Shown piece by piece: positions 50-11,675 of a DNA stretch of 25,153 nucleotides (position 1 is its first letter; every line of letters begins with the position of its first letter). Below the pieces are notes generated by a model that saw only the letters and a program-made list of their open reading frames with translations, was not told the origin of the DNA and did not search any database. This DNA comes from a virus, in the UHGV virus genome UHGV-0073209. The stretch is one strand, 5' to 3'. Both the position numbers and the translations under genes were made by a program.

Positions 50-1057
50 CTACCTGACCTCTTCACGATTATCAAAAGGGTTTAACGCAACGGCAGCATC
101 AAGATGATTGGGGGCGAAATGCGCATACCTCATCGTCATCATGATCGTACTGTGCCCGAGTATCTGCTGAAGCACTAAAATATTCCCCCCACGCATCATA
201 AAGTGACTTGCGAAGGTATGGCGTAGTACATGGGTACGCTGCCCCCTTGGCAACTCAATAGCGGCTCGTGCAAGCGCTGATTTGAATGCTTCGTATGCTG
301 GAGTAAAAAGTGCTCCGCGTTTTTTGGGTAGCAGCTTCTGTAGCTGTTCAGAAATCGGTACAGTTCGATTTTTTTTGCTTTTGGTCTGCGTAAACGTCAA
401 CCGGCCAGGCAGAACCTGAGATTGCTTTAAATCCTGCGCCTCGCTCCACCTTGCGCCGGTCGCCAGGCATATCCGCACTATGACCCCCAAATCCTTATTT
501 GCCGATTGATCGCAGGCCGACAAAAGTCGCACTATCTCCTCATCGTAGAGGAAGGCCAGCTCCTGATCCCCCTCCTTGAATTGCCTGATGCCCGACAGTG
601 GGTTATCGCCCTCCCATTCACCCAACCGCTTCATCTCTGAAAAAACCGCGTGCAGGTACGACTGCTCGCGATTTACCGTCGCCTCACTGAGTTTCTTTTT
701 GCCTTTCTGATTCCACTCACCGGCCAATCGTTTTTCACGATAAACCGCAAATGTATTTTTATCGAAGCGAGACGCGAGGGGATCGCCCAGGCGCTCGCAA
801 ATCGCCAATAACTTCACCTTGCGTTCATCCCCAGATGTTAGCGTTTTGCCGTGCATTTCGTACCAGCGCTCAACGAAAGCAGAAAGCGTCACCGCGCTGT
901 CGTTTACCTCCTGACTAGTTGCGTTGTTCATGGTGCGGCGCTCAAAAGAGAGCGCCTCGCCTTTGGTAGCAAACTGCTTACGAATACGCTTTCCGTCACG
1001 ACCATACGGAAAGCACTGGCATAACCATTTTCCTGATGTGAGCTTACGAACGGTCAT
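50..1057 (-). CDS. int: Tyrosine site-specific integrase (P2 Int-like)
   Basis: N-terminus MTVRKLTSGKW...GRDGKRIRKQFATKGEALSFE resembles P2 Int (MAIKKL...GRNGKRIRRKFDKKSEAVAFE). C-terminal HTFASHFMMRGG...LGHSTIMMTMRYAHF is the tyrosine recombinase catalytic region. The track ORF runs to 1141; I place the start at ATG 1055-1057. Confidence 0.9.
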   Translation of the reverse strand: MTVRKLTSGKWLCQCFPYGRDGKRIRKQFATKGEALSFERRTMNNATSQEVNDSAVTLSAFVERWYEMHGKTLTSGDERKVKLLAICERLGDPLASRFDKNTFAVYREKRLAGEWNQKGKKKLSEATVNREQSYLHAVFSEMKRLGEWEGDNPLSGIRQFKEGDQELAFLYDEEIVRLLSACDQSANKDLGVIVRICLATGARWSEAQDLKQSQVLPGRLTFTQTKSKKNRTVPISEQLQKLLPKKRGALFTPAYEAFKSALARAAIELPRGQRTHVLRHTFASHFMMRGGNILVLQQILGHSTIMMTMRYAHFAPNHLDAAVALNPFDNREEVR

Positions 1058-2240
1058 AATTGAACAAATCCACAAATTTAGGCACTTGCTCTGATTTCCT
1101 CTCCCAGTAACACCCAGACTGAAGCAATGATATGAAATCATCTTGGGTCATTGAGAGTGTACTTGTTGTTATCAGGCGTTTTTTGGTCTCGTCTGGAGTC
1201 AAAAGCTCAACCGTAACAGTACCCGGATCATATGATTGGCTTTCCATGAGGATTGGTGCATCAGTTAGTTTTCTGGGGGTAATTAGACGATTAGGGTTGA
1301 AATCACCAGTAAAGCTTCCTTCAAATGATGCGATGGTCTCGTAACCGGAGAAACAGTCAAATTGTATTTGCAATACCATCGCATGAGGTAATGTTAAAAA
1401 CTCACTCCAATCTGTGTAGCCTAATTTGTCACTATAAAAAGTATCGCCGCGCTGGAACTGGTAAGACGTTCCTTGCGTCCATACATCATAGGTGTTTTTT
1501 TCAAATGTTATTTTAGTTAGTTTAATGTCTAGCTTGCTTTTGAATACTTCTTTGATTGCGAATTTCCATCCGGCTGCATAGCCATCAATAAAGTTTGCAA
1601 TAAGGGCGGTGCTTCTACGAGGCTCTCTTAACGTTCTAAATGTAAGGGATAGTGCTTCCAAATCTTTTTTCAGCGAATCTACTTCGGAAGTGATTTTCTC
1701 TTCATGAATAACATCTAGCTCAGGCGCTTCGTAGGGAATCTCACCAGTCTCTATAAAGGCGATGAACTGTTCTTTGCTTATGATAAAGGCGTTTCGAGCC
1801 CTTGCCTCTTCAATCTTCCTCCACCCCATATTATCCCCTACGCAAAGGAAATATAGGTTTGCAGAAACACCGCCTTTAACAGATAAGTTGTTATTCTTCG
1901 CTAATTCGGTTAAATATGCTTTGTCAGCCTGCTTAAAACCAGTAAAACAGATTTCTAAATTATTTCCTCTTTCCAATTTACGACTAGGGCGTGGCTGCGT
2001 TTTCGGTACGATGGATTCTTTGTCCAAAGTAGCATTAAGCAATTCATCTTCCGACATGAACATTTTCAGAACTCGATCTTTTCTAAAAGTCCTGAATGCC
2101 TTTCGATTAATAGAGTAGCCTTGGAAAAACTCATCTCGCTCAACTACGCGAGTTACACTTTGCCGTGACACCTCTCCTTTGACATTGATGTAATGGAAGA
2201 AAGCATTTTTATCTTCATTGATAAGAGATGAATCAAACAT
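1044..2240 (-). CDS. Hypothetical 398-aa cargo protein: WYL-like N-terminal domain, central BRCT-like domain, unknown C-terminal domain of about 230 aa
   Basis: ATG at 2238-2240 with AAGGAG 6 nt upstream on the minus strand. Residues about 14-57 (FFHYINVKGEVSRQSVTRVVERDEFFQGYSINRKAFRTFRKDRV) fit the WYL-domain pattern ending in RTFRxDRI. Residues about 95-165 (ICFTGF...LSVKGGVSANLYFLCVGDNMGWRKIEEARARNAFIISKEQFIAFI) fit the LigA-type BRCT pattern. Its stop overlaps the int start by 14 nt. Confidence 0.8.
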   Translation of the reverse strand: MFDSSLINEDKNAFFHYINVKGEVSRQSVTRVVERDEFFQGYSINRKAFRTFRKDRVLKMFMSEDELLNATLDKESIVPKTQPRPSRKLERGNNLEICFTGFKQADKAYLTELAKNNNLSVKGGVSANLYFLCVGDNMGWRKIEEARARNAFIISKEQFIAFIETGEIPYEAPELDVIHEEKITSEVDSLKKDLEALSLTFRTLREPRRSTALIANFIDGYAAGWKFAIKEVFKSKLDIKLTKITFEKNTYDVWTQGTSYQFQRGDTFYSDKLGYTDWSEFLTLPHAMVLQIQFDCFSGYETIASFEGSFTGDFNPNRLITPRKLTDAPILMESQSYDPGTVTVELLTPDETKKRLITTSTLSMTQDDFISLLQSGCYWERKSEQVPKFVDLFNYDRS

Positions 2241-2282: not shown

Positions 2283-2636
2283 TTAATCGTCACCAGTTTT
2301 TACTCGTGGCTTTGATTGCGCAAACGCATCACCAACCGCCTGTATGTTTAAGCGCGCCGCCTCATCCATCGCGCGGTAGTTTTCTATGAGTTTTTTTTCT
2401 TCTTCGCTTTCCGTGACCATGCCATCTGGTTGGAGGGTCCGTTGCCCAGTAAGTACATACAATATATCAACCCCGATTTTTGCCAGTGCCGAGAGGTATT
2501 TTGCATCTGGTGATCTCTCATCTCGTTCGTAGTAGGCCTGAGAACCACGTGACTGTTCTGCCAGTTTGGCAAAATCTGTTTGATTTAATCCGAGTTTATC
2601 CCGCTCCTCGCGAAGCCTGCTTCCGAATGTGGACAT
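2283..2636 (-). CDS. HTH (XRE/Cro-CI type) immunity repressor, P2 C-like by position and fold
   Basis: LREERDKLGLNQTDFAKLAEQSRGSQAYYERDERSPDAKYLSALAKIGVDILYVLTG is a Cro/CI-type helix-turn-helix. It is transcribed divergently from the early operon and lies upstream of int, as P2 C does. Confidence 0.8.
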   Translation of the reverse strand: MSTFGSRLREERDKLGLNQTDFAKLAEQSRGSQAYYERDERSPDAKYLSALAKIGVDILYVLTGQRTLQPDGMVTESEEEKKLIENYRAMDEAARLNIQAVGDAFAQSKPRVKTGDD

Positions 2637-5058: not shown

Positions 5059-6021
5059 ATGACAATGATTAAATCACCCATCAAATGGGCGGGCGGTAAA
5101 ACCCGCGTCATGCCGCAGCTGCTGAAGCATCTGCCGAAAGCCGATTGCCTGATTGAGCCGTTCGTTGGCAGCGGTACCGTGTTTATGAACACGGAATACC
5201 GCCGCTACGTCCTCTGCGATAGCAACCGCGCGCTGATCAATTTCTTTCTTGTATTGAGGGATGATACAGAGCGCCTGATAGCGGTTGCCCGCAATATATT
5301 TCGGGACGGTAACAAAGCAGATAAATATTACTCCGAGCGCGAAAAATTCAATTACATGTCATGGTATGAATCAGAAAAGGATTGCCGATCGACATTATGG
5401 GCGGCGTCCTTTTTGTACCTGAATCGCCACTGCTTCAACGGTCTTTATCGTACAAATCTGGACGGCGGTTTTAATGTGTCATTTGGCCGATATAAACAGC
5501 CATATTTCCCCGAAGCCGAAATGCGCTTATTCGCCGAAAAAGCGCGGGATACCAACGCGCTATTTCTTTGCAATGATTTTCGCACTTCTATTCCGTACAT
5601 CGCGAAGAATCGCCCGGACTCAGTAATTTACTGCGACCCCCCCTATATCCCGGCAAGCAAATCCGCCAATTTCACCGCATACGGCAAGCCGTTTACCCTG
5701 GACGATCATCGTGCTCTGGCTGCAACCCTGCTCGATGCTCATCGCCAGCACGGCACCCGCGCGGTGATATCCAACAGCGATACCCCGGAAACCCGCGAGA
5801 TTTATTCCGCTTTCAACCTCCACGCCTTCAGCGTTCGCCGTTCCGTTAGCGCCAAAAGCCGCGACATGGCCGGTGAAGTGATCGGCGTGATTCCTGATTC
5901 AGTCGACTGCTATACGCGTAGTTGCGCTAGCTGCGAAGACGTCGAGGAATGCTTAGCGCCGACAGAGATTTGGATCGGGTTTGATATGGCCGCCGGATTT
6001 GATAACGGGGAGCCTTTCTGA
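5059..6021 (+). CDS. dam: DNA adenine (N6) methyltransferase, Dam family, with a Cys-rich C-terminal extension
   Basis: IKWAGGK, EPFVGSGTVF, LYLNRHCFNGLYRTN and CDPPY align along the length with E. coli Dam. The start may be ATG 5065, which has GAGGG 7 nt upstream, rather than 5059. Confidence 0.92.
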   Translation: MTMIKSPIKWAGGKTRVMPQLLKHLPKADCLIEPFVGSGTVFMNTEYRRYVLCDSNRALINFFLVLRDDTERLIAVARNIFRDGNKADKYYSEREKFNYMSWYESEKDCRSTLWAASFLYLNRHCFNGLYRTNLDGGFNVSFGRYKQPYFPEAEMRLFAEKARDTNALFLCNDFRTSIPYIAKNRPDSVIYCDPPYIPASKSANFTAYGKPFTLDDHRALAATLLDAHRQHGTRAVISNSDTPETREIYSAFNLHAFSVRRSVSAKSRDMAGEVIGVIPDSVDCYTRSCASCEDVEECLAPTEIWIGFDMAAGFDNGEPF

Positions 6022-6194
6022 TGAACACGCTTGATGCCGTTGTGACGCGAATTCTGGACGTTCGCCCATATCGCCATTTCTGGGTCGTCGAGGTGGAGGT
6101 GCTGTGCTACGGCGATTACAGCAACACGATCATCATCCGCGATAGTGAAAAAGAAGCCCGCCAGGTTAAACCCGGCGACACGGTAACGATCTGA
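6021..6194 (+). CDS. Small hypothetical protein (57 aa), translationally coupled to dam
   Basis: ATG 6021 overlaps the dam stop (ATGA). Below the track length cutoff; found by manual translation (MNTLDAVVTRILDVRPYRHFWVVEVEVLCYGDYSNTIIIRDSEKEARQVKPGDTVTI). Confidence 0.4.
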   Translation: MNTLDAVVTRILDVRPYRHFWVVEVEVLCYGDYSNTIIIRDSEKEARQVKPGDTVTI

Positions 6195-6204
6195 GGTACC
6201 GCAA

Positions 6205-6360
6205 ATGAACGAAGAAACCAATTACCGCCGCTTCTGGCGCAATACCGTGATCTGCTGCGCGCTCTGCTCACTGCTGTTTTGGCTCCCGATGGGCTGTCTC
6301 GCCTTTCGTGTTTTCTCTGTGGTGTGGGAGGCGCTGTGGTTGCTTATTACAACGAAATAG
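6205..6360 (+). CDS. Possible small hydrophobic protein (51 aa)
   Basis: ATG 6205 with GAGGT 7 nt upstream; translation MNEETNYRRFWRNTVICCALCSLLFWLPMGCLAFRVFSVVWEALWLLITTK. Overlaps the methylase start region, so speculative. Confidence 0.25.
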   Translation: MNEETNYRRFWRNTVICCALCSLLFWLPMGCLAFRVFSVVWEALWLLITTK

Positions 6361-7391
6361 ACCCTCACGCAGCACAGCACCTGCGCAACCTTATCGACGC
6401 CGGCCATATTGCGCCGGGCGTCGTTGACACCCGTTCAATTGAGGATGTAACCCCCAATGACCTTATCGGATTCAATCAGTGCCATTTCTTCGCCGGGATC
6501 GGCGGATGGTCGCTTGCCTTACGCCGCGCAGGATGGCCAGACAGTCGCCCGGCATGGACAGCATCATGCCCATGCCAGCCTTTCAGCGCGGCAGGCAAAG
6601 GACTTGGGTTTGCTGACGAGCGGCACTTATGGCCCTCCGCACATTGGCTTGTCGGCCAGCGCCGCCCTGTCGTGGTTTTTGGCGAGCAATCTGGCAGCGC
6701 TGACGCAGCGGACTGGATCGACCTTGTACAAGCTGACGTGGAAGCCCTGGGCTATGCCTTCGGGGCGGTTGCGTTTCCGTCTGCGAGCGTCGGCGCGCCG
6801 CACCAGAGAGACCGCGCTTATTGGGTGGCCGACGCCGGCCGCGAACGAGTTCGAACCGAAGGACTTGCAAAGGCTCTTGGAGAGAAGGGAGAAATTCGCG
6901 GCCAAGCATGGAAACAACGGGTTTGGCCTGACACTAGGGCAGGCGGTGCATCTGTTTGCGGGCTGGCCGACACCGACGGCAACGGACGGGAAAGGCGGTT
7001 ATCAGGGTGGACGAATCCGCAATGGGAAGCTATCGACGGACAGGCTAGATGTGGCTGCGCAGCTTGCGGGCTGGCCGACGCCGACCACGAGCAACGACCG
7101 CTCGCCATGTCCGCAAGAGGCTATGCGGACGTATCGCGACAATGGAACAAAGATTCAGAAGCGGCTTCAGGATGTAGCTGCGTTATGCGGCCCGGCCCGG
7201 TTAACGGCTTCTGGAGAGATGCTGATTGGCTCCACGGCCGGGATGGATGGTGGAGGCCAGTTAGACCCGGATCATTCCCGCTGGCTGATGGGATTCCCGC
7301 CAGAGTGGGAAGAGTGCGCGCCTACGGAAACGCTATCAACATTGAAGCGGCGGCAGCGTTCATAAAAGCGTATATGGCGGCGGAACAATGA
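6336..7391 (+). CDS. C5-cytosine DNA methyltransferase (phage Dcm-like); conserved motifs split across two reading frames
   Basis: In the annotated frame: YYNEIDPHAAQHLRNLI, FFAGIGG (motif I), PCQPFS (motif IV), VVVFGEQ (motif VI-like), GAPHQRDRAYWVA (motif VIII), AYGNAINIEAAAAFIKAY (motif X-like). Start taken as GTG 6336, 5 nt after GGGAGG; the track ORF starts at TTG 6279. The overlapping ORF 6457-7365 carries three GWPTP motifs and RWLMGFPPEW. Confidence 0.7.
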   Translation: MVAYYNEIDPHAAQHLRNLIDAGHIAPGVVDTRSIEDVTPNDLIGFNQCHFFAGIGGWSLALRRAGWPDSRPAWTASCPCQPFSAAGKGLGFADERHLWPSAHWLVGQRRPVVVFGEQSGSADAADWIDLVQADVEALGYAFGAVAFPSASVGAPHQRDRAYWVADAGRERVRTEGLAKALGEKGEIRGQAWKQRVWPDTRAGGASVCGLADTDGNGRERRLSGWTNPQWEAIDGQARCGCAACGLADADHEQRPLAMSARGYADVSRQWNKDSEAASGCSCVMRPGPVNGFWRDADWLHGRDGWWRPVRPGSFPLADGIPARVGRVRAYGNAINIEAAAAFIKAYMAAEQ

Positions 7392-9871
7392 CCGCCGCAT
7401 CAACTGCACCTCACATCGCGCAGCCAGCTCGCGCTGACGCCACCCGGTATGATTACGAGTGGCAGAAGCCGAGACCTGCCATTTATGTTGATAAGACTCC
7501 TGCTGTTGATCTGGTTGAACTTGGTCAAGAGAAGGAGTTTTTGGCGTGGGTAAAAGTCACCCTTGCGCCGCTACCTCGCTTTATTCGCCTGCGTCTGGCT
7601 TCCCGCGTCGACAGCATTCACACCATGAAGGGCAGACACATCGCCCGCCTGGCGCTGCGCGATATCATCCGCAGGGATCTGCCGCCTATCAATATGGTTA
7701 ATGAGCAATATGCTATTGCGATGACCGATGAGGCTAAATCTCAGGCCGATACGGCATTTAAGGGGTTAAACCCGCTTTATCACACGTTTAACACCCTGCA
7801 TGGGCTGGTTGAGCGCTTTAATCGCCTGCCGGATTTCACGCCGGAAGATGTCGAGCTGCTGGCGCAGGATATCGCCATCTATATGCGGTCTGTGCTGAGT
7901 GAAGTTCACGAAACTATAGAGACGCAGAGTGATCGCAAATATGCCGGGTACCTTTACACCGAAGCGGCCATCCTCGCGCGGCTTTTCTTCCTGACGCCAC
8001 CGAGCTGGGGAAAGTATTGTCGCGGCGCGTTGTTTATTGACGAAGCTACTACCGGCATCAGCAAGATGCTGGATGATCGCTACTGGCACCGCAACCTGAA
8101 AAAGTACGCCACGCGCTGGCGCGAGCATCTGCACATTGCTTTTGGCGATGTGAAACGGGGTGCTGCACCGTATTGCAGCAAGCACCACGTTGACGAGTGG
8201 GACGCCAGGCGCAAGCGCAGCCGCGCGATCATGGCCCGCCTTGAACTGGAAGACCAGGATACCAAAGAGCGCATTTCACTTATCGAGCAGATCGATAAGA
8301 GCATATCTAACCCGGCGTTGCGCCGCGTTGAACTTATGACCCGTATCGGCGGCTTTGAGAAAGTCGCCACCGAAAGCGGCTACGCGGGTCAGTTTTTTAC
8401 CCTGACAGCGCCATCCAAATACCACGCATATACCGTATTCGGTCATCGTAATGCCAAATGGAACGGCGCCAGCCCAAGATCCACGCAGCGCTACCTTAAT
8501 CGGGTATGGCAGAAAATCCGCGCAGAGCTGGCCCGCCGCGAAATCCCGGTTTTTGGTCTGCGCGTGGCCGAGTCTCACCACGACGGTACGCCGCACTGGC
8601 ATGGCCTGCTGTTCTCTTTGCCGGAACATTCCGCCGAGCTACTGGAAGTGATGGAAGACTACGCCACCCGCGAGGACGCGGAAGAGTTACAGGGTAAGCA
8701 TGGCAACCAGCCGCGCTTTGACATGAAGCCTATCGATCATGAAATCGGCAGCGCCACCGGCTACGTGGTGAAGTACATCAGTAAGAATATTGATGGCTAT
8801 GCGCTCGATGGTGAAACTGACGACGAGAGCGGCCGGCCACTCAAAGAAACATCTAAACATGCTACTGCCTGGGCTTCATGCTGGGGTATCCGTCAGTTTC
8901 AGTTTTTAGGCGGCGCGCCGGTGTCTGTCTGGCGCGAGTTGCGCCGGTTCCGCAATCAGGAGCAGGCCGACAAGATAAACCCACTGTTTGCCGAGCTACA
9001 CCGCGCGGCCGATGCTGGCGACTGGCAGCAATACACTCAATTACAGGGGGGCGCACTGGTTGCCCGCCGCGATCTGCCGCTGCGTATCTGGTACCAGCAG
9101 AAAGACGAGCCGAATGATTACGGTGAATATCGCGACCTCATCAAAGGCCTGATGATGCCAGCCGTTCAGATCCCCCCCATTGAAACCCGCCTGCATTCCT
9201 ACTCAATCGTAAGGAAGAAACCGGAGGTTTTAGACGACTCCGGGCAGGCAGTTGACTTTGATTTTGACCTTCCGGGCGCGTCTGCGCCCTCTAGGACTCG
9301 TGTCAATAACTGTACCGAGGTTAAAAAACGAACAAATCAGCCCCCCGGATCACCGCCATTAATGACAGTGCCAGCTGAGCGGGAAGAGCCTGAACAGTTC
9401 GAGATCGGTCAGTTAACACGCGAACAGCGAAAACAGGCGTTTGAAAGCATCCATAACCACAAACCGCAGCGGCATAAATCCCCCGCCGATGAGTTTGAGG
9501 CGCTGGCGTACAGCATTACCGTCGGCGACTGTACAGAATTTGACACCCGCAGGGCAGAAAGTTATCTCAAGGCCGCCCAGGAGATTAGGCGGAGAGAACA
9601 GGTTTTATCACCGGAAATCGCCGGACTGGCGGGCTTAGTTCAGTCATGGGCGAAAGTGAAGAAGGTGCTGATCAGTAAACCGCAGGCTATACAGCTGGCG
9701 CGCGGTAATGAAGTGACGGTGCTGGATACGGTATATCGAGCGCATCCGGTTACGGGTGAGTTGATCATTGCAGGCGTTGATAAACCGTGGCGCAAAACTC
9801 TTGCAGATCATAAGGCCGGCGAGCTAGCGGCTCGCTGGAAGAAGGCAGCTAAACGGAAAAATGAGAGGTAA
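7388..9871 (+). CDS. A: Rolling-circle replication initiator (P2 gpA-like, HUH endonuclease)
   Basis: 827 aa. HUH-type motif TPHWHGLLF and paired catalytic tyrosines in GYVVKYISKN. The start overlaps the methylase stop (ATGA). Confidence 0.9.
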   Translation: MTAASTAPHIAQPARADATRYDYEWQKPRPAIYVDKTPAVDLVELGQEKEFLAWVKVTLAPLPRFIRLRLASRVDSIHTMKGRHIARLALRDIIRRDLPPINMVNEQYAIAMTDEAKSQADTAFKGLNPLYHTFNTLHGLVERFNRLPDFTPEDVELLAQDIAIYMRSVLSEVHETIETQSDRKYAGYLYTEAAILARLFFLTPPSWGKYCRGALFIDEATTGISKMLDDRYWHRNLKKYATRWREHLHIAFGDVKRGAAPYCSKHHVDEWDARRKRSRAIMARLELEDQDTKERISLIEQIDKSISNPALRRVELMTRIGGFEKVATESGYAGQFFTLTAPSKYHAYTVFGHRNAKWNGASPRSTQRYLNRVWQKIRAELARREIPVFGLRVAESHHDGTPHWHGLLFSLPEHSAELLEVMEDYATREDAEELQGKHGNQPRFDMKPIDHEIGSATGYVVKYISKNIDGYALDGETDDESGRPLKETSKHATAWASCWGIRQFQFLGGAPVSVWRELRRFRNQEQADKINPLFAELHRAADAGDWQQYTQLQGGALVARRDLPLRIWYQQKDEPNDYGEYRDLIKGLMMPAVQIPPIETRLHSYSIVRKKPEVLDDSGQAVDFDFDLPGASAPSRTRVNNCTEVKKRTNQPPGSPPLMTVPAEREEPEQFEIGQLTREQRKQAFESIHNHKPQRHKSPADEFEALAYSITVGDCTEFDTRRAESYLKAAQEIRRREQVLSPEIAGLAGLVQSWAKVKKVLISKPQAIQLARGNEVTVLDTVYRAHPVTGELIIAGVDKPWRKTLADHKAGELAARWKKAAKRKNER

Positions 9872-9873
9872 AC

Positions 9874-10431
9874 ATGAAGCATTTCAGCACTAAAGCAATC
9901 AGATCAGTTATCGCCGAAATGAACCGGCAGGACGAGAAATGGGGAGCTGACCGCGATCAACATCCGTTCGTCTGGCAAACCATTCTTAGCGGAGAGGTCG
10001 GCGAATTCAGCCAGGCAATTTTACATGATGAATTTGGAGGCCATAAATCAGGAACGGCACGCGAAGAGATGGTGCAGATCGCCGCCGTCGCTCTCCAGAT
10101 TATCGAATATTACGATCGCCGCTGCGCGCCTGCGGCGGAATCTGAACAAGTTCACCCGGCGCTCGCCATGCCGGCCATCCCGGCGGGGCGTGAAAAAATC
10201 GGCGGCTGCGACTGGCTGGACTGGAATCAGCTGTCAGCGCTCGGTCTTATTGTCCGCATTAACGCAGAAATTCTTCACCCGCTTGGACTGGCAATTTTCC
10301 GTGATCCGGCTTCCGGCATCTCAGCGGGGGCCATGATTTCGCCAGATGGTAAATGGGAGTATGCGCCTGATGTTATTGATGGGCTGCGGGTAAGACTCTC
10401 CGATCACTCAGGAAAGCACGGTCACTTTTGA
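9874..10431 (+). CDS. Hypothetical protein (185 aa); N-terminus possibly a MazG-like all-alpha NTP pyrophosphohydrolase fold
   Basis: Starts 2 nt after the gpA stop with GAGAGG upstream. MNRQDEKWGADRDQHPFVWQTILSGEVGEFSQAI resembles the MazG-like EExxE helix pattern; this call is tentative. Confidence 0.65.
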   Translation: MKHFSTKAIRSVIAEMNRQDEKWGADRDQHPFVWQTILSGEVGEFSQAILHDEFGGHKSGTAREEMVQIAAVALQIIEYYDRRCAPAAESEQVHPALAMPAIPAGREKIGGCDWLDWNQLSALGLIVRINAEILHPLGLAIFRDPASGISAGAMISPDGKWEYAPDVIDGLRVRLSDHSGKHGHF

Positions 10432-10452
10432 CCGTGCTGGCCATTCTATCGA

Positions 10453-10491
10453 GCACCGCCATTTTTGGCGGTGCTGCAGGTGTTATTTTTT
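10453..10491 (+). terminator. Possible hairpin / weak intrinsic terminator between the 185-aa ORF and the second methylase
   Basis: 8-bp stem GCACCGCC/GGCGGTGC (10453-10460 and 10467-10474) with loop ATTTTT, then a T6 run at 10486-10491. The T-tract is displaced from the stem, so non-canonical. Confidence 0.3.
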
Positions 10492-10507
10492 GGGGAGCGA
10501 GAAGGCT

Positions 10508-11203
10508 ATGAGTTATCTGGGAAGCAAAGCGGCCAGCGGTGTTTATCAAAAAATCATCGCTGAAATGCCGCCGCACGATACCTACATTGAAACGCATTTA
10601 GGCGGCGGCGCGATCATGCTGCGCAAACCTCCGGCAAAAGTGAATTGGGGGATCGATATCGACCCGCAAACCATCGAGGCGTTTAACCAGAGCAACCCTG
10701 ATTTTCTGGATAGGATGGCGGACACCCTATTTATTGATGTTGGGGATGCCGTCGAGTTCTTGTGTTGTTTCGATTACGCCTCCGCCGGCCGCGTCTTAAT
10801 TTATTCTGATCCGCCTTATCTCCATGAAACGCGCTCCAGCTCCGCGCGCTATCGGCATGAGTACACCGTTGGTGATCATTACCGCCTGCTGGGATTACTC
10901 TGCTCGATGCCGGAAAACGTGAGCGTAATCGTATCGGGGTATCCTTCTTCGGTTTATGACAACGCCCTGCCGCGCTGGCGCAGCAAGGAGTTTCAGGCCA
11001 TGACGCGCGGCGGCGTTCGTACAGAGAAAATCTGGATGAACTACCCGGAAGGCCGGGCGTATTCGCACGCGTTCGCCGGTAAAGACTACAACGATCGCTA
11101 TCGGATTAAACGAAAAGCGCAGAGATGGAAGGAAAAATTTGCAGCGTTACCACCCGCCGAGAGGTTGGCGATCATGGTGGCGCTTGGTGAGGTCGAAATT
11201 TGA
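10508..11203 (+). CDS. Second N6-adenine DNA methyltransferase, Dam/D12-class, small phage type
   Basis: N-terminal YLGSKAASGV...IETHLGGGAIML and LIYSDPPYLHETR (DPPY motif). Start placed at ATG 10508; the track ORF starts at an upstream alternative codon (10490). Confidence 0.8.
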   Translation: MSYLGSKAASGVYQKIIAEMPPHDTYIETHLGGGAIMLRKPPAKVNWGIDIDPQTIEAFNQSNPDFLDRMADTLFIDVGDAVEFLCCFDYASAGRVLIYSDPPYLHETRSSSARYRHEYTVGDHYRLLGLLCSMPENVSVIVSGYPSSVYDNALPRWRSKEFQAMTRGGVRTEKIWMNYPEGRAYSHAFAGKDYNDRYRIKRKAQRWKEKFAALPPAERLAIMVALGEVEI

Positions 11204-11321: not shown

Positions 11322-11675
11322 ATGTTAAATAATCAGGATTATGCTTTCATTAACAATACAGTAAATTCAATTAAATCAACAATGATCAGCCTTGCTAGTG
11401 AGTACGGCCCTGATTATTGTTCAGATTTTCTGATTACGTTCGAATCAATTAAAAACAATACGAGTCGGCTACGACTAACGGATGTGACCATTAACGAATA
11501 CATATCGCTTATTCGTGGTCATAACATGAACGTTCAGAGCCATCCACAAGGATTGCTGGTACAAGCTCACGTTAGCTCGATTTTGCTGGCTCCGAATGAT
11601 GCTGTGGCCCTATCGAATTCTCTCCAGATGTTTCGTGGCCGCGCAGCCCTCAACGGCGATTACGAGAACATCTAA
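11322..11675 (+). CDS. Hypothetical protein (117 aa) encoded in an AT-rich island
   Basis: A 117-codon ORF in DNA of roughly one-third GC, where chance ORFs are unlikely. GGTGA Shine-Dalgarno-like upstream; AT-rich 118-bp upstream region. No recognisable domain. Confidence 0.6.
   Translation: MLNNQDYAFINNTVNSIKSTMISLASEYGPDYCSDFLITFESIKNNTSRLRLTDVTINEYISLIRGHNMNVQSHPQGLLVQAHVSSILLAPNDAVALSNSLQMFRGRAALNGDYENI

Follow-up and report, generated by a model that had tools for sequence, protein, structure and literature searches.

Three DNA methyltransferase genes lie within a few kilobases of each other in UHGV virus genome UHGV-0073209, a 25,153-nucleotide stretch of viral DNA (hereafter the window), and the second of them, a C5-cytosine methyltransferase gene, raises the question of whether it encodes one protein or two. 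An earlier note on this DNA had named the three genes, and all are present where it placed them by both profile and motif evidence (Table 1). The C5 gene that it listed is real, but a fourth conserved frame, nested inside it, had been overlooked. We call the annotated frame of this gene alpha and the nested open reading frame (ORF), which lies in the +1 frame of alpha, beta. Judged from the sequences and by analogy with a known enzyme, the probable reading is that these are early-operon methylases without a detected restriction partner and that gene 2 is dual coding, with beta serving as the partner subunit of alpha.

Two overlapping frames in the cytosine methyltransferase gene

The alpha frame matched Pfam PF00145 with 43.9 bits (cut-off 22) and phrog_363 with an E value of 1e-84, and it aligned with M.HhaI over motifs IV to VIII (M.HhaI residues 73-170; E 1e-14). 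In the AlphaFold2 model, confidence (predicted local distance difference test, pLDDT) was 80-94 for residues 1-180 and 23-31 for residues 184-296, rising again to 70-85 in the helix (residues 336-350) that contains GNAI. Foldseek placed M.HhaI at the top for this model (E 3e-7), with a probability of 1.0 for both M.HhaI and M.HaeIII; as modeled, the catalytic domain of alpha is a C5-methyltransferase fold. Alpha does not follow the canonical single-chain order of motifs, I-II-III-IV...VIII, target recognition domain (TRD), IX, X: no motif-IX pattern occurred in the alpha frame of any locus tested, and the pattern was found in the +1 frame. The N terminus of alpha (6336-6590) looks permuted relative to M.HhaI, with a 37-residue, NEID-containing segment of predicted beta-alpha-beta structure (AYYNEIDPHAAQHLRNLI...SIEDV) ahead of motif I; motif IV follows about 6 residues after motif I, and the counterpart of M.HhaI residues 33-72 (motifs II and III) is not between them. 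The start of alpha is overlapped by a hydrophobic ORF of 51 amino acids (MNEETNYRRFWRNTVICCALCSLLFWLPMG...; 6205-6360, plus strand), whose counterpart in CP052639 is annotated as a hypothetical protein.

Beta opens with a leader that is unconstrained; a conserved N-domain comes next, then three modules bounded by GWPTP and a conserved C-terminal block. It matched two PHROG families labeled DNA methyltransferase, phrog_31772 (3e-44) and phrog_1008 (2e-31), and nothing in NCBIfam or PADLOC. More than 5,000 predicted proteins are full-length homologs of beta, down to about 50% identity, and a hidden Markov model (HMM) search retrieved 17,573 representatives of 50%-identity clusters. No unsplit single-frame relative was found among the best 150 of these 17,573 matches, all of them close beta-type proteins, and an unsplit gene occurred in none of the 80 genome loci described below. 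The number of GWPTP-bounded modules ranges from one to five in relatives, with the modules shuffled among them. Distant phages show the same arrangement: in Rhodobacter phage RcSalem and the Kagunavirus phages phiEc3 and K1ind3, the match to beta is in the +1 frame relative to the annotated methylase, and gp58 of Escherichia phage N15 holds a beta match as well. The GenBank record of K1ind3 gives ORF30 as a "C-specific methylase" and the nested ORF29 as an "Mte8-like protein."

The start of beta is also conserved. The first ATG of the beta frame occupies one of four fixed positions, 41-53 codons 5' of the LSARQ core, in 47 of 49 loci, and about 30 of those 47 have an AAGGAG- or GAGGA-like (Shine-Dalgarno-like) sequence ahead of it. 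A start-stop, ATG-TAA, is located 6 nucleotides 5' of the beta ATG in the window and in its closest relatives; the upstream ATG of this start-stop serves as the beta start in other relatives. The leader, about 38 residues long, leaves the synonymous sites of alpha unconstrained and looks dispensable.

For the conservation tests, 80 genome loci (L numbers below) were fetched by alpha-specific peptide patterns to avoid circularity. Gamma-, Beta-, and Alphaproteobacteria are represented, with alpha frames about 50% identical to that of the window, and 79 of the loci were assessable. Both frames were open in 76 of the 79, with a beta of 248-413 codons, while the longest open stretch of the third frame in the same loci was mostly 38-140 codons. 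The three exceptions were L042, with a poly-G frame swap, and L031 and L072, each with a stop in alpha and an intact beta. The stop lies in the variable region in L072 and near the N terminus in L031, and these two may be decaying genes, sequencing errors, or differently working variants. When the alpha codons of the window were shuffled synonymously 500 times, the longest open run in the beta frame had a mean of 116 and a maximum of 253 codons, compared with the 304 observed.

Diversity at the third positions of alpha, measured over 51 loci, was 0.44-0.60 at 6345-6567, fell to 0.21-0.40 at 6570-7317, and was 0.50 at 7320-7362. Restricting the comparison to four-fold synonymous sites of alpha gave 0.63 and 0.58 outside the conserved beta blocks, as against 0.26 (6570-6839) and 0.21 (7185-7317) within them. 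Amino-acid diversity in 6570-6839 was similar for both frames.

Homologous GWPTP-bounded modules from different loci were compared in the variable region. At positions 1, 2, and 3 of the beta codons, they differed by 0.12, 0.05, and 0.46 substitutions per site in the 80% identity bin and by 0.22, 0.12, and 0.55 in the 70% bin, a classic signature of coding in the beta frame. Because the third position of alpha is position 2 of beta, and this was the least variable, the protein under selection in the variable region is beta and not alpha. Alpha nevertheless has no stop in this region in 32 of 32 loci; 58 in total would be expected from synonymously shuffled beta codons, and the third frame carries 1-9 stops per locus. 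It follows that alpha has to be read across the region, its spelling there being irrelevant. The low-confidence stretch of the alpha model, a linker flanked by confidently modeled parts, agrees weakly with this.

Gene 2 is thus two fully overlapping genes, with both frames under purifying selection. The conserved parts are split between them: alpha has motifs I, IV to VIII, and X together with an unconstrained linker, and beta has the N-domain, the modules, and the motif-IX-like block.

Beta as a candidate partner subunit of alpha

We hypothesize that beta would be translated from its own start, with GAGGA followed by the ATG at 6457, and that the beta polypeptide would bind alpha and supply the target-recognition part and motif IX. 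Alpha and beta would then jointly make up the active cytosine methylase, an arrangement already described for M.EcoHK31I (YGGCCR; Lee, Kam & Shaw 1995). In that enzyme, the beta chain lies wholly in another frame of the alpha gene, alpha carries motifs I to VIII and X, beta carries motif IX, and both chains are needed (PMC2836561, PMC3404938). By this analogy, gene 2 probably makes a two-subunit enzyme. During lytic growth, all three enzymes of the operon would act on phage (and host) DNA, and their methylation would shield progeny DNA from restriction.

Several points weigh against a partner-subunit role for beta or temper the evidence for it. The drop in four-fold diversity has a Mann-Whitney p value of 1e-9, which overstates the independence of the loci because they are related. 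The best candidate for motif IX, RWLMGFPPEW in beta, is assigned by its pattern and by the sole alignment that hhalign gave for the beta profile with M.HhaI, which pairs beta residues 268-287 with M.HhaI residues 273-292 (motif IX) and is not significant (E 0.35). Searches of Pfam with beta as a single sequence and with all 33 members of its alignment found nothing relevant, the beta profile had no match among PDB sequences at E<=10, and the AlphaFold model of beta alone, made from the 33-sequence alignment, reached a pLDDT of 42.5, unusable for a fold search. Finally, the literature on M.EcoHK31I places the TRD on alpha (PMC2836561, PMC3404938), whereas the region at the TRD position in the window is under selection in the beta frame.

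How else might two conserved frames be explained? Beta could be a genuine overprinted protein with a function unrelated to methylation, such as a regulator or an anti-defense factor, and the lack of statistically significant homology between beta and any methyltransferase part speaks for such a function. We regard this as unlikely, as it fits poorly with the coinheritance of the two frames and the partition of the motifs between them. Beta is strictly coinherited with alpha in every locus examined, and the motif IX that is not recognizable in alpha has its best candidate in beta, directly 5' of motif X of alpha. The modular variable array of beta, moreover, occupies the place of the TRD in C5 methylases, and the precedent of M.EcoHK31I favors a methylase role.

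It is still less probable that gene 2 yields a single polypeptide through two ribosomal frameshifts, from alpha to beta after motif VIII and from beta back to alpha before motif X. Such an A-B-A reading does restore the canonical motif order (I to VIII, TRD, IX, X), and natural variants join the N-terminal part of alpha to the C-terminal part of beta through a change in poly-G length. No conserved slippery site was seen, however, and the gene in the window has no homopolymer of 6 or more. The N-domain of beta is under selection where it overlaps motifs IV to VIII of alpha, and a frameshift product would not contain it; beta has a conserved ATG and a Shine-Dalgarno-like sequence of its own; and alpha is kept free of stops through the variable region, which would be needless if ribosomes left the alpha frame.

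That alpha alone is functional, the nested ORF arising incidentally from GC richness, codon usage, and a repeated GCTGGCCGACGCCGAC-type motif, is scarcely credible, for while the National Center for Biotechnology Information Prokaryotic Genome Annotation Pipeline (PGAP) annotates only alpha, beta lacks a Pfam or PDB match, and a GC content of about 60% in gene 2 makes stop codons fewer, stops abound in the third frame of this GC-rich DNA, the synonymous sites of alpha are constrained specifically where beta is conserved, the positions of the beta start codon are conserved, the shuffling tests oppose this reading, and a GC-driven artifact is excluded by the synonymous-site test and by substitutions in the variable region that track the codon periodicity of beta and not that of alpha.

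An artificial A-B-A chimera scored no better against PF00145 at its C terminus, which also tells against the frameshift reading, and neither it nor an A-B chimera extended the PF00145 match. In relatives, the variable region holds a poly-G tract, which is G8 in L001 (8551) and L003 (3044) and G7 in L042 (3044); where it is G7 or G10 instead of G8, the N-terminal half of alpha is fused to the C-terminal half of beta, and the motif X segment is orphaned (proteins P0111, P0112, and P0118). This length variation may reflect either phase switching by slipped-strand mispairing or sequencing errors in the homopolymer. A poly-G phase switch was rejected for the window, where the gene has no run of at least 6 and the tract is confined to relatives.

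A nested second subunit is of a known kind, described for M.EcoHK31I in 1995, and databases show it as unnamed proteins, as PHROG families, and under the one "Mte8-like" annotation; the RefSeq/PGAP annotation omits beta. Our literature search found no description of a family-wide conservation of beta, of its selection signature, or of a beta that encodes variable modules, and nothing relevant turned up on "Mte8" or on ORFs nested in the cytosine methylase genes of phages. Considering the sequence pattern and the analogy, we are evenly divided on whether all "AYYNEID-type" phage and prophage Dcm-like methylases are obligate two-subunit enzymes with the TRD modules and motif IX read in the +1 frame. 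If they are, each would contain a same-strand dual-coding stretch of about 750-900 nucleotides, with alpha threading an unconstrained linker through to motif X, and the family would be a large one, with at least 17,000 clusters of the nested protein at 50% identity and members in Klebsiella P2-like prophages, N15, Kagunavirus, and Burkholderia and Rhodobacter phages. Specificity would change by the shuffling of GWPTP-bounded beta modules, and genome annotation would systematically leave out the specificity subunit. There is a reasonable chance that gene 2 exemplifies a rule, so far under-appreciated, that holds generally across a very large phage methylase family.

Gene 2 offers a clean and very widespread example in which two long frames of one strand both code and the selection on each can be told apart; in prokaryotes and their viruses, overlaps of this sort are rare, and their reality is often contested. 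Should beta be the specificity subunit, enzymes cloned or predicted on the basis of the annotated ORF by itself would be inactive or misinterpreted, and a component would be missing when 5-methylcytosine motifs in the methylomes of Enterobacteria and other Proteobacteria are assigned to genes. Pipelines at times also report an intact alpha as a pair of pseudogene fragments. One case is L091 (1489-2658; a lambdoid prophage of Escherichia coli ECCTRSRTH03), where RefSeq splits alpha into two "incomplete" fragments and both frames are uninterrupted; the pseudogene call appears to result from the lack of conservation in the alpha linker. Directly 5' of the alpha gene in L091 lies a methyltransferase gene of the MT-A70 family.

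The adenine methyltransferases and their prophage setting

Gene 1 belongs to the Dam family. It matched PF02086 with 197 bits (cut-off 22; E 4e-58), TIGR00571 "dam" with 250 bits (cut-off 115), the PADLOC orphan methyltransferase model at 1e-85, and E. coli Dam (2G1P) at E 8e-65; with the host-Dam equivalog NF008152 it scored 260 bits, under the cut-off of 441 for that model. Its motifs are KWAGGK (5083), EPFVGSG (5155) for S-adenosylmethionine (AdoMet), and the catalytic DPPY (5635). We take K9, Y119, N120, L122, R124, and P134 to be the GATC-contact residues of E. coli Dam. In the alignment to 2G1P, the equivalents of K9, N120, L122, and R124 are kept, and Y119 and P134 are replaced by F and S, respectively. 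As gene 1 is a close relative of Dam, GATC is its likely target. The C-terminal extension of about 45 residues (5890-6021) is cysteine-rich (CYTRSCASCEDVEEC...) and absent from E. coli Dam.

Gene 3 is, by its sequence, clearly a methyltransferase of the D12 class, small and divergent. Its PF02086 match of 18.9 bits is under the gathering cut-off of 22, and it matched phrog_56 (1.5e-36), PADLOC MTase_II (1e-23), and TIGR00571 (6e-8). Comparison with the Dam of the window by hhalign gave a 92% probability across the DPPY region, and a search of PDB sequences gave no match at E<=0.1. Homologs with 72-94% identity are named "DNA adenine methylase," many of them with a precomputed PF02086 match, which is "faint" in L089. 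The protein has the motifs YLGSKA, THLGGGA (AdoMet), and DPPY, and its architecture is unlike that of gene 1, with DPPY about 100 residues from the N terminus and a basic, conserved C-terminal extension. It is plausible from these sequences that the two adenine enzymes have different targets.

The product of gene 3 is 93% identical to gp11 of Klebsiella phage 3LV2017 and 70-72% identical to proteins of Salmonella phages SEN5 and SW5, and the gene recurs after gpA in these three phages and in many Klebsiella prophages. In L089 and L090, both Klebsiella prophages, it recurs after gpA as a pair with the DUF7415 gene. The slot 3' of gene 3 holds the 117-residue ORF in the window and an unrelated gene of 400 amino acids in L089 and L090, and it is empty in 3LV2017. 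This 117-residue ORF had no match in Pfam, PHROG, NCBIfam, or PADLOC, and in the same four collections neither it nor the 185-residue DUF7415 protein matched a nuclease or a defense model. The earlier note had placed gene 3 in a variable slot after gpA and had suggested that it might be cargo, or the modification half of a system with its partner nearby. The gene that varies is the one downstream of gene 3, and the recurrence of gene 3 beside gpA, together with neighbors that lack a nuclease or defense match, leaves the idea of cargo with a partner unsupported.

In P2-like phages, the stretch between gpA and cos is a hotspot where accessory genes collect. Gene 3 lies in this region, is flanked by uncharacterized ORFs, and gave weak PADLOC matches to PD-Lambda-5_B (E 2e-6) and to Type II methyltransferase models, all of which would suit the modification half of a restriction or defense system with an adjoining partner. 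We nevertheless consider such a role improbable: the PADLOC matches are generic, because the Dam gene matches the same models more strongly, and the flanking ORFs show no nuclease or defense-model match, the downstream one varying among relatives to the point of being absent in 3LV2017.

The window is a P2-like (Peduoviridae) prophage of the Klebsiella type, and the methylases stand within its early (replication) operon, which lies on the plus strand; the portal and terminase genes beyond it are on the minus strand. The DNA from 5000 to 11300 matches 3LV2017 and a Klebsiella pneumoniae element of 32 kb in patches only, with identities of 87-93% and with 25-28% of the query covered. Each of these two records has a subset of the methylase genes: CP052639 has Dam, Dcm, and gpA, and 3LV2017 has Dam, gpA, and the small methylase. 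The layout is not unusual, because SEN5, a member of the Peduoviridae, is annotated with the same order of methylase, methylase, gpA, small ORF, and methylase; three methylases so arranged are already known and ordinary for this phage group. The earlier note spoke of phage orphan methylases, and this is the reasonable reading, since no endonuclease was detected beside any of the three genes in the Pfam and PADLOC scans or in the gene context. Between the integrase and the repressor lies an ORF of 398 amino acids (1044-2240, minus strand) in the stretch with the lowest GC content of the window (about 0.40). It has no Pfam family, its sole PADLOC match is a weak one to PDC-S48 (4e-5), and it looks like accessory cargo.

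Table 1. Features of the window, in order of position
Feature	Position	Strand	Remarks
Integrase	50-1141	-	Prophage context
Helix-turn-helix repressor	2283-2636	-	Prophage context
Gene 1, Dam-family N6-adenine DNA methyltransferase	5059-6021	+	320 amino acids, with C-terminal extension of about 45; PF02086, TIGR00571, 2G1P, PADLOC
Gene 2, C5-cytosine methyltransferase, alpha frame	6336-7391	+	351 amino acids, GTG start; PF00145, phrog_363, M.HhaI, Foldseek
Putative translation start of beta	6441-6459	+	GAGGA 6441-6445; start-stop ATG-TAA 6445-6450 (beta frame); ATG 6457-6459
Beta ORF	6457-7365	+	302 amino acids, +1 frame of alpha, nested wholly within 6336-7391
Alpha motif I, FFAGIGG	6486-6506	+	
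Alpha motif IV, SCPCQPFS	6564-6587	+	Catalytic PCQ cysteine
Dual-constraint segment	6570-6839	+	Alpha motifs IV-VIII over beta N-domain; LSARQA 6580, GSTLYKLTWK 6715, RLRASARRT 6778
Alpha motif VI, FGEQS	6678-6692	+	Conserved Glu
Alpha motif VIII, HQRDRAYW	6801-6824	+	QxRxR
Variable region, beta GWPTP modules	6823-7194	+	Modules at 6823, 6961, 7069; alpha reading is a low-complexity linker
Second dual-constraint segment	7195-7317	+	Beta ARLTASGEM...RWLMGFPPEW over alpha FWRDADWL...PLADGIPARV
Motif-IX-like RWLMGFPPEW, beta	7279-7308	+	Directly 5' of alpha motif X
Alpha motif X, AYGNAINIE	7320-7346	+	
P2 gpA-type replication initiator	7388-9871	+	PF05840 (2e-99); between methylases 2 and 3, closes the early operon
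DUF7415 protein	9874-10431	+	185 amino acids; PF24187 (1.8e-10), C-terminal; N-terminal half matches function-unknown PHROGs; no PADLOC match
Gene 3, small divergent D12-type N6-adenine methyltransferase	10508-11203	+	231 amino acids; ATG 10508, ORF opens at TTG 10490
ORF of unknown family	11322-11675	+	117 amino acids; lower-GC stretch (about 0.47), between gene 3 and portal

Comparison with known systems

Among phages, SEN5 (SEN5_41, SEN5_42, and SEN5_45) shares the gene order of the window, and 3LV2017 shares its Dam and its third methylase (gp09 and gp11). The methylase genes of N15 and K1ind3 resemble gene 2 in having a beta homolog in the +1 frame. The records of SEN5, 3LV2017, N15, and K1ind3 give no function to the nested ORF, and most of them leave it unannotated. 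The set of putative TRD modules in the window is unlike the sets of these four phages.

The two ORFs of M.AquI overlap only briefly. M.AquI is also a two-polypeptide C5 methylase split in the variable region, its small subunit comprising part of that region with motifs IX and X (PMC3404938); in the window, by contrast, motif X is on alpha, and the overlap extends over about 900 nucleotides. The multispecific C5 methyltransferases of Bacillus phages SPR and phi3T (PMC12707154) are likewise phage orphan cytosine methylases with target-recognizing modules in tandem, a function that the modules of the window would share; they differ in being single polypeptides read in one frame.

The closest parallel lies in M.EcoHK31I, compared here by its published description. 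It has a second chain nested in another frame, as gene 2 does, with motifs I to VIII and X on alpha. The best candidate for motif IX in the window is found in beta, the chain that carries motif IX in M.EcoHK31I. The beta chain of about 33 kDa in the window is larger than the roughly 23 kDa suggested by the M.EcoHK31I plasmid name pET3a-C23, and gene 2 is prophage-borne with no restriction partner detected, unlike M.EcoHK31I. The two systems agree again at the N terminus of beta, where the first 42 residues are dispensable in M.EcoHK31I (PMC2836561, PMC3404938) and about 40 residues are unconstrained in the window.

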